From: a virus
Taxonomy: Duplodnaviria; Caudoviricetes
Length of the DNA: 64,000 nt
Virus record (IMG/VR): IMGVR_UViG_3300031867_000003
Location: 1 to 64,000 of that record
Direction: 5' to 3' (one strand)
Shown: positions 3,153 to 15,821 of the stretch, piece by piece
Layout: the number at the start of each line of letters is the position of its first letter
How positions within the stretch are numbered: position 1 is the first letter of the stretch
Notes under the pieces: model-generated
What the model saw: only the letters and a program-made list of their open reading frames with translations
Told to the model about the DNA's origin: nothing
The model's database searches: none
Translations under genes and position numbers: made by a program

Positions 3153-3953
3153 ATGATGAGAAAAAAAGAATTCTTTAGAAGCTATGGAATCGAGTACAGA
3201 ACTAAAGATAGCAAAATCCTTGCACCGTGGGGACAGTGGGTATCACTTCCGCTCACATGGGGGTCCAAAACACATTGCTATGGATGGAGCATGTTAGCCG
3301 GGACAAAGTCATGGAAAGTAGAGTTCAACGGCAAATCTTGCACTATGAAGGGAACTTGCCCACTTCAGTGTGAACATTGCTACGGTTGCAACGGCAGATA
3401 CGCAATGGCTTCGGTATATAACAGCATTGCTTGGAAAACAGTAGCTGCTCGTCAGTATATGGATTGGCTTGAGAACGCTATCACCGCTCAGATTAACTGG
3501 GGAAAGAACGGTAAGCCGCTCGGTTTTGTTCGTGTCCATATCACCGGTGATTTCTTCTCCGAGGAATACATTGCTATGTGGAAACGTATCAAGGCAAATT
3601 GCCCGACCACTCGTATGTGGGCTTACACCAAGAACCCTGTTGCTGAGAACGCTTTCGATGACGTTGAGGGATTCAACATTGTCAAGAGTTTGGTTCCGGG
3701 ATTTGGTCTGAATTACGGTCATTGCGATCATGTGATGGAAATGTACAACGCATTGAAATCCGCCGGAATTGAAACGCACATTTGCAGATGTGCAGTTGAT
3801 GGCGAACAGCATTGTGATACTTGCCGAGCTTGCCAGGATCTGAAGCATGTTCTGTTTCTTGAGCATGGTACTAGCTATGATCCGAAGGTAGATCCGCTCT
3901 GGGATGAGTTTGTAGCATTGGTTGAGAGCGAAGAGAACACCAGACACATTTGA
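3153..3953 (+). CDS. GP88-family (radical-SAM-like) phage protein
   Basis: CPLQCEHCY Cys cluster, VRVHITGDF, WAYTK, C-terminal C..CxxCxxC. Confidence 0.65.
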   Translation: MMRKKEFFRSYGIEYRTKDSKILAPWGQWVSLPLTWGSKTHCYGWSMLAGTKSWKVEFNGKSCTMKGTCPLQCEHCYGCNGRYAMASVYNSIAWKTVAARQYMDWLENAITAQINWGKNGKPLGFVRVHITGDFFSEEYIAMWKRIKANCPTTRMWAYTKNPVAENAFDDVEGFNIVKSLVPGFGLNYGHCDHVMEMYNALKSAGIETHICRCAVDGEQHCDTCRACQDLKHVLFLEHGTSYDPKVDPLWDEFVALVESEENTRHI

Positions 3954-9222: not shown

Positions 9223-10217
9223 ATGGCAAAACCGGGAAAAATGAAAAAGAAATGTGAGAAGTACCGTAACCAGGGACGCAAGGAAACTAATAAAGAACTT
9301 CGTGCAAAACGCCACGAGGCTCGCATGAAGAAATTTGCCGACCGTCGAGAAGCCGGAAAAACTTATGAGTATAAACCAAATCCTTACAAGGAAGGAACTA
9401 ATGAATATAACCGCGAGGTTCTGGAACGTGCCGAGAAGAACGGATCTAAGAAAACGCAATTTGATAAAATGAAGTCTATTATGCGTAAGCTTCAGAATGA
9501 AATCAACGCACAGAAAAAAGCGGCGAAAGCCGCGGAGAGTAGTACCGCCGAAAAGAAATCAGGTGGGAAAAATAAAAGGAGGAAAAATGATGATTAAATG
9601 GTGTCATTATTATAGTAGCGAATGGAGAAGAATTTTGAAGCCCGCTGTTTTGCATGCGGAAACGAATTAAATATTAAATGGGATGAGGACGGATATGGTT
9701 ATTCAACTAAATTGGGAGTATGTCCTGGCTGTGGTAAGGTCATCATCCTACAAGTTATAGAAGACCGATGGATAAGAGAATGGGAGCGAGAGTTATTTGA
9801 GTACGATAAAAACGAACTTTGATGTGGTAAAGGAATTCGACGCTGAGAGAATGGCAGCTTTCTTAGCATCAATAGAATCTGATTTCTGCGAAGACCACAA
9901 TATTGAAGTAAGTGAATTCGACTTCGAAATGTTGAAGATAAAGTACTATAAATTCTTACTCACTCCATGTCCGGAATATTTGGGAGTTGTCGATTAGAAA
10001 GTCAGGTAAGGCAAATCTAATGTATTTGGTGGTGTTGATATTTGGGATTTGCATAGGGGTTATGGTAGTTGGCGGAGCAACGATATTATTTATTATTTCG
10101 ATCACTCCGCAGAAAGAGTTATACGAGTTATTAAAGGAGAACTACAATGACAACAGTAACAGTAACGTCCAAAGAAGCAAACAATATACTTCGAAAGCTG
10201 TACGAAGAAAAAAGTAA
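9223..10217 (+). other. Small hypothetical genes (9223-9597 very basic; 9622-9822 Zn ribbon; 9797-9997; about 10020-10217 membrane)
   Basis: ORF track, RBS motifs, overlapping stops and starts. Confidence 0.7.
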
Positions 10218-10653
10218 TTTCCGCAATAAGGAAATAGACGGAATGGAATTCCATGCGGCTGTCGGCGAAAAGCTTGATGATGTTCGCCCGGATTACAACT
10301 TTGAAGATACAAAATCTTGTATTGAAATTATAGACGACCAGATTCTCGCTATCAAACATGCGATTAACTTGTTCAACAGTTCCAGGATTGTCGGAGATAC
10401 CGGGCTAACGATTGACCAGGTGCTGATTAAGCTCGGCATGTTGACCGAGCGAAAACAAAAATTTGCCCGTATGAGAAGTATGCAAGAGAAACGCAGAGGT
10501 CAAATTACGGGAAACGTAATTGATTATATATATGCCAACTTCGATATTGACACTGCCGATATGGCGTATGAAGAGGCCGACGCCGAATTAAAACATCTCC
10601 AGACTGCACTTGATCTGGTGAATAACACAGTAACATTCGAAATTAGTTATTAA
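10147..10653 (+). CDS. Coiled-coil protein, DIP1984/DUF6847-like (copy A)
   Basis: EA..LRKL N-terminus, IKHAINLFNSSRIV..LTIDQVL, LQTALDLVNNTVTFEI; same layout as 13028-13660. Confidence 0.55.
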   Translation: MTTVTVTSKEANNILRKLYEEKSNFRNKEIDGMEFHAAVGEKLDDVRPDYNFEDTKSCIEIIDDQILAIKHAINLFNSSRIVGDTGLTIDQVLIKLGMLTERKQKFARMRSMQEKRRGQITGNVIDYIYANFDIDTADMAYEEADAELKHLQTALDLVNNTVTFEISY

Positions 10654-10670
10654 AGGAAACGAATTTCCCG

Positions 10671-10845
10671 TCATCCGGTAGTGTTCAAATGATATTTTAA
10701 CAATAAATCTGTGGTTGTACATGGTTATAATTTATATATGTTATTAATTTTAATTATTTGTTATATGTATTAGTCCACGGTGCTAAAGTATTCAAGTTCT
10801 TTAGGGATGAACATTATTACAGTAAATTCTGGTTCTACTGGATGA
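10671..10845 (+). ncRNA. Candidate structured RNA downstream of coiled-coil gene A
   Basis: Nested stems TCATCCGGTAG/CTACTGGATGA, TGTTCA/TGAACA, CTGTGG/CCACGG around an AU-rich low-complexity tract. Confidence 0.55.
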
Positions 10846-10896
10846 AAAAACTTCTTCGGCAACGGAAGTACGGTTATAAGTTACCGCCTGGAGGAA

Positions 10897-11553: not shown

Positions 11554-11951
11554 GCGGATATGTCGGAATAGGCAGACGAAGCGGACTTTCTTCTTAGCGG
11601 ACGTTAAAGGAGAGCCTTATATTGGAAACGATATAAGTGGAGATGGCTAATTCGGCGAAAGGCTAAGACAACGCCGAGCTAAATTAAACAGAGGTGCTAC
11701 GAAAACCGGAATTAGAAATATTCCTTTGAATGGAAATTATCGAAGCGCTGTAGTTAAATGGAGTTTGAAGAACAGCCTTTGTTTATAAATGTGTAGAGAC
11801 CATATACCATCTACCTAAATCAAGATATTAATTTGACATGGTAAAGACATGGTCCAGACTACAACATGATTCATCATGGCTATGGAAACATAGAGTAGTA
11901 TGAAAATCCGCTGATGGTTTCATCATGTGGGTTCAAGTCCCATTATCCGCA
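11554..11951 (+). tRNA. tRNA-Leu(UAA) interrupted by a group I intron (exons 11554-11588 and 11903-11951)
   Basis: Spliced exons give acceptor GCGGATA/TATCCGC, anticodon stem GCGGA/TCCGC with loop CTT^AAAA, long variable arm and T arm GTGGG-TTCAAGT-CCCAT. Confidence 0.9.
11589..11902 (+). ncRNA. Group I self-splicing intron (314 nt, no ORF)
   Basis: U-G wobble in P1 at the 5' splice site, terminal G 11902, P3 AGATGG/CCATCT, P4-type TTCGGCG/CGCCGAG, P7 GACCAT/ATGGTC in R and S elements. Confidence 0.88.
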
Positions 11952-12086: not shown

Positions 12087-12168
12087 AGCGGTGTGTTGTA
12101 AAAGGTAGCATACGCCCGTAGACATGGGAAACGTGGGCGAGGTATTGGTTCGAATCCAATCATCGCAA
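12087..12168 (+). ncRNA. tRNA-like RNA with 17-nt anticodon loop
   Basis: GCGGTG/CATCGC acceptor, D arm, CGCCC/GGGCG stem, T arm ATTGG-TTCGAAT-CCAAT. Confidence 0.6.
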
Positions 12169-12381: not shown

Positions 12382-12578
12382 AATCAATACCAATTCAAAT
12401 CGCCGATAATGAGGTGAGGATGTTAAGGATTAAGTAGCGAAAACCATGAAAATTAAGAATATCTGCCGTGGATATGAACTTAAAAGAGTAATGAAAGAGT
12501 AACGAAGATGGCAACGCAAACCAACTAAAAGCGTTTCGGCGGTTGAGTAATTATTGACGAGGCGAATTGGTATTGATT
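12382..12578 (+). ncRNA. Candidate 197-nt long-hairpin RNA
   Basis: Perfect 15-bp terminal inverted repeat AATCAATACCAATTC/GAATTGGTATTGATT; no ORF; strand assumed. Confidence 0.5.
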
Positions 12579-12584
12579 ATGTTT

Positions 12585-12658
12585 GGAACATTGGCGCAAT
12601 TGGTTAGCGCAACCGGCTCATAACCGGTCGGTTCCAGGTTCGAGTCCTGGATGTTCCA
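12585..12658 (+). tRNA. tRNA with CAT anticodon (Ile2- or Met-type)
   Basis: Canonical cloverleaf GGAACAT/ATGTTCC, ACCGG-CTCATAA-CCGGT, CCAGG-TTCGAGT-CCTGG. Confidence 0.92.
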
Positions 12659-13027: not shown

Positions 13028-13660
13028 ATGAGAAAAATCACAGTAACAGAAGCATTGAAAGAACTGAAACTCTATGACGACAAAATTTATAAGGCAATCG
13101 GTCGTGCCGAATTTGTCGGAGCAGCTAAAAAGAACTCAGAATTAATCGGCCACAAAAAGAAATCTACCTACGAAAATGATGCAAAGTCATCGTTCGATTC
13201 TATCACGGCTATGATTGATAACCGAGACGCTCTCAAAAGTGCAATTGTCAATTCTAATGCGATTACCAAGGTAGAAATCGGCGGAATAACGATGACTGTC
13301 GCCGCTGCTATAGAAAAGAAGTCATCAATCGAGTATGACAAGAGATTTTTATATGCAATGAAAGAGCAATTTGATTCGGCTGTTTCCACCGTTGCCCGTG
13401 AGAACGCAAAAGTGGACGCTCAGTGCGACAGATTGATCGAAACACAGCTTTCCGGCGATAATAAGACAAAAATCGATAAAGTTGACATAGAAGCCTTTAC
13501 AGCGCCGTATAGGAAGCAAAGGGAATTTGCCATTGTCGATCCTCTCGATATTGAGAAGAAAATTGCCGAGTTGGAGTCCAGAATTGATGCGTTTGAAGCT
13601 GAGGTCGATACGAAGCTGAATGTGTCGAATGCACTGACGACAATAGAAATTGATTTTTAA
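13028..13660 (+). CDS. Coiled-coil protein, DIP1984/DUF6847-like (copy B)
   Basis: ITVTEALKELK, LKSAIVNSNAITKVEIGGITMTVAAAI, VDTKLNVSNALTTIEIDF. Confidence 0.6.
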   Translation: MRKITVTEALKELKLYDDKIYKAIGRAEFVGAAKKNSELIGHKKKSTYENDAKSSFDSITAMIDNRDALKSAIVNSNAITKVEIGGITMTVAAAIEKKSSIEYDKRFLYAMKEQFDSAVSTVARENAKVDAQCDRLIETQLSGDNKTKIDKVDIEAFTAPYRKQREFAIVDPLDIEKKIAELESRIDAFEAEVDTKLNVSNALTTIEIDF

Positions 13661-13681
13661 TTATTAAATAGCTAATAAATA

Positions 13682-14045
13682 TATTGCGACTATATCGAAA
13701 TTCGCAAACTTAAGCCCCTCGCCGGAAGGGTTATCCCGGCTCCATTTAAAACATAATATCGAGATGAAGCGATATGATATTATACAGTGATTTCTCATAT
13801 GAGCAGCATCAATGTTGCAATGCTGACGGGGTGAGAAACTAAGTGTAAATTGGATTAAGCGCTCAGTTATCATTGATCATTGTTTAGTGGATGCCACTGT
13901 GGAAGTGGCGATTTAGAATTTAGAATTCTTTTTATGTAGGGCTTAGGGAACTTAATTATTAATTTTCGATAAAATCCTCAACTAAAGTTTATGGGTATTG
14001 CTTATTCGACCTTGCGAATTGTACGAGGCTGATATAGTCGCAATA
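13682..14045 (+). ncRNA. Candidate 364-nt structured RNA downstream of coiled-coil gene B
   Basis: Perfect 15-bp closing stem TATTGCGACTATATC/GATATAGTCGCAATA; nested AATTCGCAA/TTGCGAATT and TTAAGCCC/GGGCTTAG; several internal hairpins. Confidence 0.65.
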
Positions 14046-14049
14046 ACAA

Positions 14050-14141
14050 GGGAACGTAGTTTAATAAGGTGCCAAAAATAAATCCTTAAGGCAAAACACT
14101 TTTGCGCAAAAGAGATGCAAGTTCAAACCTTACCGGTCCCA
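14050..14141 (+). ncRNA. tRNA-like RNA with D-loop hairpin insertion and minimal anticodon loop
   Basis: GGGAACG/CGGTCCC, GTTT..AAAC with inserted TGCC..GGCA hairpin, CTTTT-GCGC-AAAAG, GCAAG-TTCAAAC-CTTAC. Confidence 0.6.
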
Positions 14142-14207
14142 TTAGCCGGAGTAACACAGTTGTGTACAGGCTGCGAAGAAACGGTGAAAGCACATGTGTA
14201 ATTGGTT

Positions 14208-14280: not shown

Positions 14281-14723
14281 TAATGGTTGTCCAGGATTCC
14301 GGCTTATCTGATTGTGGATAAGATAAGCGAAAGCAGAAAGGCAAAATGACATATTCCACACATGTCTGATGCCCGTGGCAGAATAATATGCGAAGGACAT
14401 AGCTGTCAAAAACTGGTGACACTAGGGAAAGACCTGGAAGTACGTACTTGTAACTATGTGATTGATCAAATCAACTTTTTATCCCGTAACTTTCGTTACA
14501 AACCCCCGGCGGCTCGGAAAGACGAGCAATGCAATCATTTACTTAACAGAAACAGAAATGAGTAACTATAGTAGGTTTTGTGGTGAGGAAGTTCCTCGCC
14601 ACACCGTTCTTAAACAAGGTGTCACAAGACGGATTTCTGGCTTAATCAACTCCGCACGATGCGCAAATTAATTTCGTGGAACACGGCCTTGTTTGAGAAA
14701 ATAAAAAAAGGAGGTTTTTATTC

Positions 14724-15731
14724 TTGGCCAAGAGTAAAATAGAAGAATTAGGTAGGGATGAACTTTAGAAATTATTGGATGAATCCAGTAGTTATGCTGA
14801 GGTTCTTGAAAAATTAAAAATGTCTCAACACGGTGGTAATCATACAACGCTTAGGAAAATAATTGATAAGTGGAGTCTTGATTTAACCAAGATAAATGAA
14901 AATAGAAAACTAATACAAACAAGAGGTTTAAAAAGAGTAAATAAAGCAATTCCACTGGAAGATATTTTAACTGGGAAATATAACAAACCGTATAAAGGCA
15001 GTAATTTTAAAGATCGATTAATAAAAGAAGGATATAAAGAATATAGGTGTGAAAGATGTGGATTAACAGAATGGTTAGGCAAACCTATTCCGTTACAAAT
15101 CCATCATATAGATGGCGTTCACAATAATAATCTTTTGGAGAATTTGGAGTTGCTTTGCCCTAATTGTCATACGTTGACAGATAATTTCGGAGGTAAAAAT
15201 GTTAAACATCCGAAGATACTTAAAAAGGAAGACGCAAAAAGAGTAGCTAAAAAAGGAATCTCAGAAGACGGGTAGAGATTATATGACGGATACGGTAATT
15301 ATAAAATACTGTGCCCTATTTGTAAAACAAACTTTATGACTAGAGGTGCAGAAAAATGCAAAGAGTGTTACACAATAGACCATATAACTCCAAAAATACC
15401 TAAAGACGAGTTATATCAAGCAATAAATGAAACAAATAATTATGCTGAAATTGCTAGGAGATATCATTATCATGAAGATACAATTGCAAAATGGCATAGA
15501 TATTACGCAAAACAAGATAAAGAAAACGGTATAATAACTATCGCAAGTGAAAATGCTCCAGATAGAGAGACATTAAAAAAAGAGCTTAGAGAATTATCCT
15601 TTAATGAAATTGGAAGAATTCATGGAGATGTGAATGGAAATACTGTTAAAAAATGGTGTATATCATATTCACTTCCATATTTAAGATCTGAAATTGAAAA
15701 AATTAGTGAGGATGATTGGGTGGCTATCTAA
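14724..15731 (+). CDS. HNH endonuclease with two in-frame TAG codons (14766, 15273)
   Basis: GGAGG RBS before TTG 14724; CERCG..LQIHHIDG..NN..ENLELLCPNCH; track ORFs 14775-15275 and 15336-15731 share one frame. Confidence 0.75.
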
Positions 15732-15745
15732 CCATCCTCCATTAC

Positions 15746-15821
15746 AGGGCGTTCGCCAAGCGGTAAGGCACAGCATTTTGATTGCTGCATTTTTTCATCA
15801 GTTCGAATCTGATACGCCCTG
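15746..15821 (+). tRNA. tRNA-Gln(UUG)
   Basis: AGGGCGT/ACGCCCT, CAGCA-TTTTGAT-TGCTG, ATCAG-TTCGAAT-CTGAT; 9-nt U-rich variable loop. Confidence 0.88.

Follow-up and report, generated by a model that had tools for sequence, protein, structure and literature searches.

A helical protein gene and a doubly pseudoknotted RNA with a seven-nucleotide repeat form a conserved two-part unit in phage tRNA arrays

In the opening 64,000 nucleotides of a 202-kb IMG/VR phage record (hereafter the window; its genes all lie on the plus strand), a gene for a 210-aa acidic protein, here called protein B, is followed by a structured RNA of 364 nt. In this work we show that this gene and this RNA are a conserved, dedicated two-part unit, which emerged both when the search started from the protein and when it started from the RNA, and that the RNA represents a conserved family with a knotted core containing two pseudoknots. 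The pair had been proposed in a sequence-only reading of the same DNA as a gene followed within 22 nt by an RNA closed by a perfect 15-bp helix, and this description proved correct, with a spacer of 21 nt between the stop codon of the gene and the 5' end of the RNA.

The window's own DNA has no match among GenBank phages by direct DNA similarity, and relatives were reached through the protein. In close relatives the RNA is about 93% identical, and RNA homologues stand directly 3' of genes whose proteins are as little as about 31% identical; iterated nhmmer searches reach the RNA at loci whose proteins are 35-55% identical. Every metagenomic locus fetched through the protein has 500-1,000 gene-free nt 3' of the gene, and cultured phages of unrelated families have a gap of 340-1,230 nt after it in genomes that are otherwise tightly packed. 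The sequence-only reading had considered that homologous genes might generally lack such RNAs, and this is not the case: the RNA is present in 25 of the 26 loci ascertained through the protein. The linkage includes phages of Salmonella, E. coli (T5-like), Klebsiella, Vibrio, Pseudomonas, Bacillus and Clostridium. The T5-like version alone is found in 441 matching records, at 90% identity or more in 440 of them, and most of these records carry no annotation of the region.

A covariance model of the 3' domain of the RNA, trained on 12 sequences, finds members on which it was not trained (54 bits at L008, 39 in C. botulinum phage D-1873, 38 in Bacillus phage BCP8-2, 30 at L016 and 19-24 at L005-L007), and its matches are always on the strand of the gene and 240-400 nt beyond the stop codon. 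The model fails on the T5-like chee158 and phiPsa374 loci, even with filters off. The same anatomy is visible by eye in these two phages (chee158 and Pseudomonas phiPsa374) and in Klebsiella KB57, Pantoea AAS21, Vibrio JSF10, Salmonella 7-11 and Pseudomonas XD2. Such divergent members were recognised directly, without a model score, by a closing helix (P1) of up to 21 bp followed by (C/U)GAAA, the heptads described below, and AAA(U/C)CC...GGCUG with a covarying helix. For the reverse search, a 21-base RNA pattern was run over IMG/VR and returned 27 loci. Nineteen matches have the true geometry of 61-64 nt; the gene lies upstream in 17 and the other two are cut at the end of the fetched DNA, so that all 17 testable matches are linked. 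The remaining eight span 69-79 nt, are without the gene and are as numerous as expected by chance.

The gap that holds the RNA is non-coding. There is no open reading frame (ORF) in the gap after position 13660 under genetic code table 11, with TAG read as glutamine (TAG=Q) or under table 4, and a hidden ORF created by stop-codon recoding was rejected, given that neither TAG=Q nor table 4 yields a frame spanning the gap. The perfect 15-bp inverted repeat at the two ends of the RNA (13682-13696 and 14031-14045) encloses 334 nt and is the sole perfect 15-mer pair of its kind in the window. The minimum free energy (MFE) of the RNA is -106.8 kcal/mol (z = -2.9), and none of 100 shuffles folds as well. 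A search of Rfam 15 (4,227 families, including ROOL, GOLLD, RNase P, transfer-messenger RNA (tmRNA), group I intron, drum and LOOT) gave nothing over 13661-14049, either at gathering scores or at E values up to 10, and the homologous RNAs of 14 loci gave nothing at gathering scores. The element is present as a single copy in the phage genome.

Comparative analysis rested on a sequence-only MAFFT alignment of 25 full-length members, unfitted to structure, on which six helices were then placed. The helices pair in 88.8% of alignment cells, against 60.2% in column shuffles (none of 500 reaches the observed value) and 37-42% when the partners are slid; double-sided changes occur in 33 of 35 pairs, and many pairs are G-U. 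A covariance-model-based alignment of the 3' domain gives 94.8% paired cells, again unequalled in 500 shuffles. P1 ranges from 9 to 21 bp or more in relatives, and on the sequence-only alignment all 12 of its pairs covary, 96.7% of its cells are paired and G-U pairs are frequent. Directly within it is nested P2, with compensatory changes in the six pairs counted. The sequence-only reading had described two nested helices and four internal hairpins: the closing helix and P2 are upheld by covariation, the hairpin at 13721-13740 and the small P4 hairpin are upheld comparatively, the hairpin at 13893-13909 is lineage-specific, and the others stand at the level of the MFE prediction only. Two pseudoknots had escaped that reading. 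One is formed by CCC at 13716-13718 and GGG at 13728-13730, in the loop of the hairpin at 13721-13740; its two helices covary in 3/3 and 5/5 pairs, and the loop consensus is (G)UUAU. The second is formed by P3 (13976-13980 with 14024-14028), which crosses P2, is 98.4% paired and covaries in 4 of 5 pairs. About 50 unpaired positions are also conserved in the family, and GGCUG at 14027-14031 is nearly invariant.

The variable hairpins are separated from the 3' domain by a single-stranded tract in which a U followed two bases later by an A recurs with a period of 7 nt; typical units are GUUCAAA, GCUCAAA and GUUUAGC. The short repeats noticed in the sequence-only reading, ATCATTG (13869 and 13876) and TTTAGAA (13912 and 13919), fall within this tract, which in the window RNA has five units, then the lineage-specific hairpin, then further units. 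Identity at lag 7 in an autocorrelation analysis is 0.48, as compared with 0.31 in shuffles, and chains of in-phase units average 6.4 units versus 2.8, with 5-13 units in most members. The repeat consensus is common to phages of Gram-positive and Gram-negative hosts.

The protein side of the unit is widespread. Protein B matches the PHROGs profile phrog_1491 over its full length (E 4.7e-63, residues 1-209 on positions 2-210 of 211). A word-indexed search found 93 homologues, an exhaustive profile search extended the phrog_1491-type family to 3,758 clusters at 50% identity, and lengths are almost all 200-217 aa among the 150 matches listed. By tblastn, homologues are found in 747 GenBank phage records, every match being below 60% identity; these include T5-like Salmonella and E. 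coli phages and phages of Vibrio, Pseudomonas, Bacillus, Klebsiella, Erwinia, Lactococcus, Aeromonas and Clostridium. The name of phrog_1491, tail fiber protein, was considered and rejected, since the loci lie in tRNA arrays, among early-type and RNA-metabolism genes and never among virion genes; moreover, the fold is a helical bundle and not a fibre, and the label derives from similarity to hypothetical proteins. As a separate observation, one 474-aa representative (P0125) has the domain at residues 270-473, matched in two stretches, and may be a tandem or fused form.

The AlphaFold2 model of protein B (predicted local distance difference test, pLDDT, 90.8) has long helices with short strand caps and a duplicated SNAxT motif. 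Its top match is PDB 3kdq (profile E 0.023; Foldseek probability 1.00, E 0.008, TM 0.42/0.56), an uncharacterised Corynebacterium diphtheriae protein which we take to be DIP1984 and which is the sole PDB sequence-profile match beyond generic coiled-coil similarity. The closest named Atlas cluster is DUF6847 (0.88, TM 0.53/0.64). The description of protein B as DIP1984/DUF6847-like holds only in the sense of a probable remote relationship. It does not extend to the family models: protein B has no match in Pfam or NCBIfam and falls below the DUF6847 and DIP1984 thresholds (PF20935, NF038048), and only one of 28 members of its family matches these models (E 0.042). Self-association, which had been suggested as oligomerisation, is supported, not proven, by modelling: protein B is predicted to form a homodimer with an ipSAE of 0.75 versus 0.00 for the best of three controls, three runs being concordant and the partner having a pLDDT of 90. 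Of 30 solved homomers, 20 attained the mark used for this call, as did 1 of 23 proteins whose structures were solved as single chains; these counts are rough since our own alignment was supplied.

The window contains a second gene-RNA pair, copy A, whose parallel organisation had also been pointed out in the sequence-only reading. No paralogue of protein B was detected within the window by blastp or phmmer, the similarity to copy A appearing only at the profile level: when the two families are aligned with hhalign, E is 7e-5 and the probability 62% over 109 columns. Copy A is accordingly a true, if distant, paralogue of the B pair. The A family matches the DUF6847/DIP1984_fam models directly in 5 of 16 members (best about 2e-6). 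Its RNA has GUUAU-type repeats, with AAAAACUU at 10845 and a hairpin with the loop GGAAGUACGGUUAUAAG at 10864, and A-family homologues have a conserved downstream RNA, in which UUCCG stands before the closing stem and which also contains GUUAU-type repeats, AAAACUU and a hairpin with the loop GGAAGUUCGGUUUCAAG. RNAs of this type were found 3' of DUF6847-like genes in at least 10 loci (window 10654-10890 and L053-L062), with the loop GGAAGU(U/A)CGGUU(U/A)(C/U)AAG, and tRNAs come next in two of them. The copy A RNA alone folds no better than shuffles (z = -1.0), and it is conservation that speaks for its reality. The phage thus carries two pairs of protein and RNA that have diverged within one superfamily and differ in the type of their repeats; among the indirect arguments for protein and RNA being cognate partners, none is stronger.

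The gene and the RNA are probably co-transcribed, as indicated by the tiny spacer, by the position of terminators and by the lack of signals between the two. In the family the RNA begins 8-30 nt past the stop codon, and at one locus (L018) the P1 arm overlaps or includes the stop codon; neither a promoter nor a terminator was found between gene and RNA in the window, and intrinsic terminators are located 3' of the RNA in L021, L023 and L024. Genes for tRNAs and tRNA-like RNAs surround the pair (tRNA-Met at 12585, tRNA-Gly at 14207, tRNA-Gln at 15746 and weaker matches at 12087 and 14050, by ARAGORN and Rfam), and tRNAs are present in 20 of 30 loci. In the window, L015, L017, L033 and KB57, P1 is separated by 3-6 nt from the tRNA or tRNA-like gene that comes next. 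It is likely that the RNA is freed from tRNA-operon transcripts by tRNA-processing enzymes, and in the window the tRNA-like gene at 14050 probably sets its 3' end through RNase P cleavage. Neighbouring genes with RNA functions encode Pnkp/RNA-ligase-type, RNase J-like beta-CASP, PhoH-PIN and ProQ-like proteins.

Table 1. Positions in the window of the gene-RNA unit, the parts of its RNA and associated features
Feature	Position	Strand	Remarks
Gene for protein B	13028..13660	+	ORF; 210-aa helical acidic protein; phrog_1491; remote DIP1984/DUF6847 relative; predicted homodimer
Structured RNA, whole	13682..14045	+	364 nt; homologous RNAs 3' of homologous genes; covariation
P1 5' arm	13682..13696	+	Pairs with 14031-14045, 15 bp; followed by conserved junction (C)GAA(A) 13696-13699
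P2 5' arm	13700..13707	+	Pairs with 14012-14019; nested directly within P1; 6/6 counted pairs compensatory
5' H-type pseudoknot	13716..13740	+	Hairpin 13721-13725 / 13736-13740; loop GGG 13728-13730 with CCC 13716-13718
Variable region	13741..13853	+	Hairpins differ between lineages; alignment columns 85-320 mainly gaps; tRNA here in relative L018
Single-stranded repeat tract	13854..13950	+	U-N-A cores each 7 nt; includes ATCATTG x2 and TTTAGAA x2
AAAUCC (invariant) and P3 5' arm	13972..13980	+	P3 5' arm 13976-13980 pairs with 14024-14028
P4 hairpin	13993..14012	+	GGGU...ACCU with conserved loop GUUGnnUAAUUG; small, inside P3; comparatively supported (3'-domain model and sequence-only alignment)
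3' strands	14012..14045	+	P2 3' arm 14012-14019; conserved UUGUAC; P3 3' arm 14024-14028; GGCUG 14027-14031; P1 3' arm 14031-14045
tRNA-like gene	14050..14141	+	4 nt past the end of P1; Rfam tRNA, 33.1 bits
Copy A gene and RNA	10147..10890	+	168-aa DIP1984/DUF6847-like gene 10147-10653; RNA P1 10672-10681 / 10835-10844

According to these data, we tentatively favour, at slightly less than even confidence, a dedicated ribonucleoprotein in which dimers or oligomers of the protein would read the triplet array in the manner of TRAP or HutP and which would act in RNA or tRNA metabolism. The phage module consists of a helical, acidic protein that is predicted to self-associate and belongs to the DIP1984-like superfamily, and of a putatively stable RNA of about 320-430 nt, probably co-transcribed with the gene. 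The long terminal helix P1 closes the RNA and the two pseudoknots organise a compact core, which displays a single-stranded array of some 5-13 U-N-A triplets at an exact spacing of 7 nt. With the module placed in or beside the phage tRNA array, the 3' end of the RNA could be made either by an RNase P cut at the tRNA that follows 3-6 nt on or by a terminator. Protein dimers or higher oligomers may recognise the periodic triplets, as TRAP does on (G/U)AG and HutP on UAG-N4, and the ribonucleoprotein would then act on RNA or tRNA metabolism during infection, a role suggested by neighbourhoods rich in RNA functions.

Several points weigh against this ribonucleoprotein. The proteins are acidic in the B family (median pI 5.5, net charge -3) as well as in the A family (5.1 and -6), and no RNA-binding domain was recognised in protein B by Pfam, NCBIfam, PDB profile and fold searches. 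Acidity is unusual in RNA-binding proteins, although a protein that recognises triplet repeats by their sequence does not have to be basic. The number of repeats ranges from 2 to 13, which implies no fixed stoichiometry. At the L018 locus a tRNA-Leu(AAG), at 3334-3408, lies inside the variable region of the RNA and occupies the expected repeat position, the repeats being few; the protein of this locus is the most divergent examined and has a 25-aa insertion. In Aeromonas phage LAh_6 (L065), the one exception among the 26 loci ascertained through the protein, a gap of about 600 nt follows the gene and is without the hallmarks of the RNA family. Finally, the linkage of gene and RNA might equally arise from a shared pathway or from cis-regulation.

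It is also conceivable, if on the whole unlikely, that the RNA works without its neighbouring protein, either as an RNA-only particle or as a decoy or sponge for a host RNA-binding protein, an RNase or a tRNA-targeting defence nuclease, the protein being linked to it merely by co-expression or a shared pathway. The acidity of the proteins and their want of an RNA-binding domain agree with this explanation, as does the location of the module in tRNA arrays. The heptad has the length of an anticodon loop or a T-loop (units such as GUUCAAA and GCUCAAA), and its consensus is shared by phages whose hosts are as distant as Gram-positive and Gram-negative bacteria. A precedent is given by ROOL and GOLLD, large phage RNAs near tRNAs which reportedly assemble free of protein (PMC12286853). 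However, the gene-RNA linkage is nearly absolute across very distant phages, and the paralogous protein family has another RNA with other repeats, which a cognate pair predicts and a common host target does not.

That the RNA is instead a cis-acting 3' untranslated region, guarding the end of the mRNA after processing of the tRNA operon and/or mediating feedback of the protein on its own mRNA, seems to us improbable. The short distance between stop codon and RNA, the overlap in L018 and the lack of a promoter of its own are what such an element would show, and the transcripts in which it sits require cleavage by RNase P and further enzymes. Nevertheless, a hairpin alone suffices as a 3' stabiliser, whereas here two pseudoknots, some 50 conserved unpaired positions and a periodic array are maintained from Clostridium phages to T5-like phages, and the T5-like region keeps an identity of 90% or more in 440 of the 441 records mentioned above.

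The topology of the core raises the question of whether it is a derived relative or a mimic of RNase P RNA or of tmRNA, which we consider very unlikely. The strands follow each other as P1-P2-X-P3(5')-Y-P2'-P3'-P1', the same order as for P1, P2 and P4 in RNase P RNA, with crossing helices supported by covariation, and the context of a tRNA array would be fitting. AAAAUCC...GGCUG also seems to resemble the RNase P P4 strands, AAAGUCC...GGCUUA. Against this, none of 15 sources (the window and 14 loci) matches a corresponding Rfam model at gathering scores, nor the window RNA at E values up to 10, and the P3 5' arm is only about 35 nt from the P2 3' arm, too little for the catalytic elements P5, P15 and P18. 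ARAGORN finds no tmRNA, P1 has 9-21 bp, and there is neither a T arm nor a CCA end. The RNA was assigned neither to tmRNA (7-bp acceptor stem, T arm, CCA and tag frame) nor to RNase P RNA (P4 pseudoknot, P5/P15 and J5/15). An element acting as DNA, such as an iteron origin, a miniature inverted-repeat transposable element or a recombination site, was suggested by the terminal inverted repeat and the A/T-rich short direct repeats and is excluded in practice because frequent G-U wobbles uphold the helices (in duplex DNA, or in the opposite strand, each of them would turn into a C-A mismatch), the two pseudoknots covary, the orientation to the gene is fixed and the element is single-copy in the genome.

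Returning to the ribonucleoprotein, a broader version of it would make the module a near-universal accessory of large phages that carry tRNAs, whose heptads, the size of an anticodon loop or T-loop, would influence the tRNA economy of the host during infection and whose core would have converged on the P1/P2/P4 topology of RNase P. It might, for example, be a decoy or inhibitor of host nucleases that target tRNA or of modification enzymes, or a scaffold that matures or repairs phage tRNAs. We regard this version as a speculation with a small chance of being correct.

Some further observations were made at these loci. In the window, a 29-nt inverted repeat (12382-12410 and 12550-12578, 83% complementary) surrounds 139 nt immediately 5' of tRNA-Met and may be a further closed RNA element of the tRNA region. 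The tRNA-like sequences at 12087-12168 (82 nt, 35.8 bits) and 14050-14141 (92 nt, 33.1 bits) have low Rfam tRNA scores, are over-long and are not called by ARAGORN. Under TAG=Q, 14697-15731 becomes one 344-aa frame with two in-frame TAGs that fuses an HNH-endonuclease ORF (14775-15275) with the ORF at 15336-15731, and it may be a recoded gene of the early region. A weak LOOT RNA match lies at 11812-11912 (25.3 bits, with a gathering score of 46.4). In another IMG/VR phage, a tRNA with a CUA anticodon (L033:6079-6165, called Pyl by ARAGORN), likely an amber suppressor, is part of the tRNA array beside the module. Clostridium phage D-1873 has a drum RNA (RF02958, L020:3907-4014, 47.7 bits with a gathering score of 43) about 430 nt 3' of the family RNA, no gene intervening in the stretch that contains both. 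In phage LAh_6, a ProQ-like "RNA chaperone" gene stands directly 5' of the homologous gene, and the gap contains CUAAAGAAA(G/A)G twice.

The unit would add to the known complex RNAs a class with two pseudoknots, strong covariation and a periodic array, together with a partner family of thousands of clusters. This RNA has been overlooked in hundreds of sequenced genomes, among them those of T5-like coliphages and of Bacillus, Pseudomonas, Vibrio, Klebsiella and Clostridium phages, and since culturable model phages carry the module it is experimentally accessible. Its constant position in tRNA arrays bears on the purpose of these arrays and of their "extra" stable RNAs, and is relevant to the debate on phage tRNAs as a counter to tRNA-cleaving host defences. 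The tail fiber label of the gene family is widely propagated and unsupported, and needs correction.

In the literature on DIP1984/DUF6847, septicolysin, T5 non-coding RNA and phage structured RNAs near tRNAs, a search that largely did not cover subscription journals, the pair is not described. A catalogue of 10,006 unnamed viral RNA candidates may include this RNA without comment (PMC10690425). ROOL and GOLLD are likewise large, structured, pseudoknotted phage RNAs of unknown function beside tRNA genes, with structures determined by cryo-EM (PMC12286853). The present RNA differs from them in having no Rfam match, in its smaller size (about 320-430 nt), in being tied to one upstream gene and in its periodic array; moreover, ROOL and GOLLD reportedly assemble without protein. 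OLE RNA with its proteins OapA, OapB and OapC offers another likeness, being a large, ornate, conserved RNA of unknown biochemical function whose partners were first inferred from gene linkage; however, it is reported to be chromosomal (PMC12054373) in extremophilic or anaerobic Bacillota, about 600 nt long, membrane-associated and served by different proteins, and it has no similarity in sequence or structure to the RNA described here.

As for the protein, 3kdq of the DIP1984/DUF6847 group is the best fold match for protein B, which is about 60 residues longer, while the copy A family matches the models of that group directly. Its members sometimes carry the annotation septicolysin. The group has no established function, and membership is therefore uninformative on mechanism. 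With TRAP and HutP the unit shares a trinucleotide core at fixed short spacing in single-stranded RNA, here U-N-A every 7 nt. These Bacillus oligomers bind with one site per subunit, TRAP on (G/U)AG repeats and HutP on UAG-N4-UAG-N4-UAG, the latter with a period of 7 nt. Protein B has no homology to TRAP or HutP in Pfam, PDB profile and fold searches. They have beta-rich or alpha/beta folds and act in 5'-leader attenuation, whereas here the protein is a helical, DIP1984-like, predicted dimer, the RNA is a closed, pseudoknotted 3' element, and binding is inferred.

The closest parallels in genomic position may be stable RNAs from phage tRNA clusters whose function is unknown, T4 species 1 and 2 (rnaC/rnaD) and the small T5 RNAs, which are matured by the tRNA-processing machinery. 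These RNAs are about 80-140 nt long and come without a linked protein, whereas the RNA described here has about 350 nt and follows the gene of its putative partner; both belong to phage tRNA operons.

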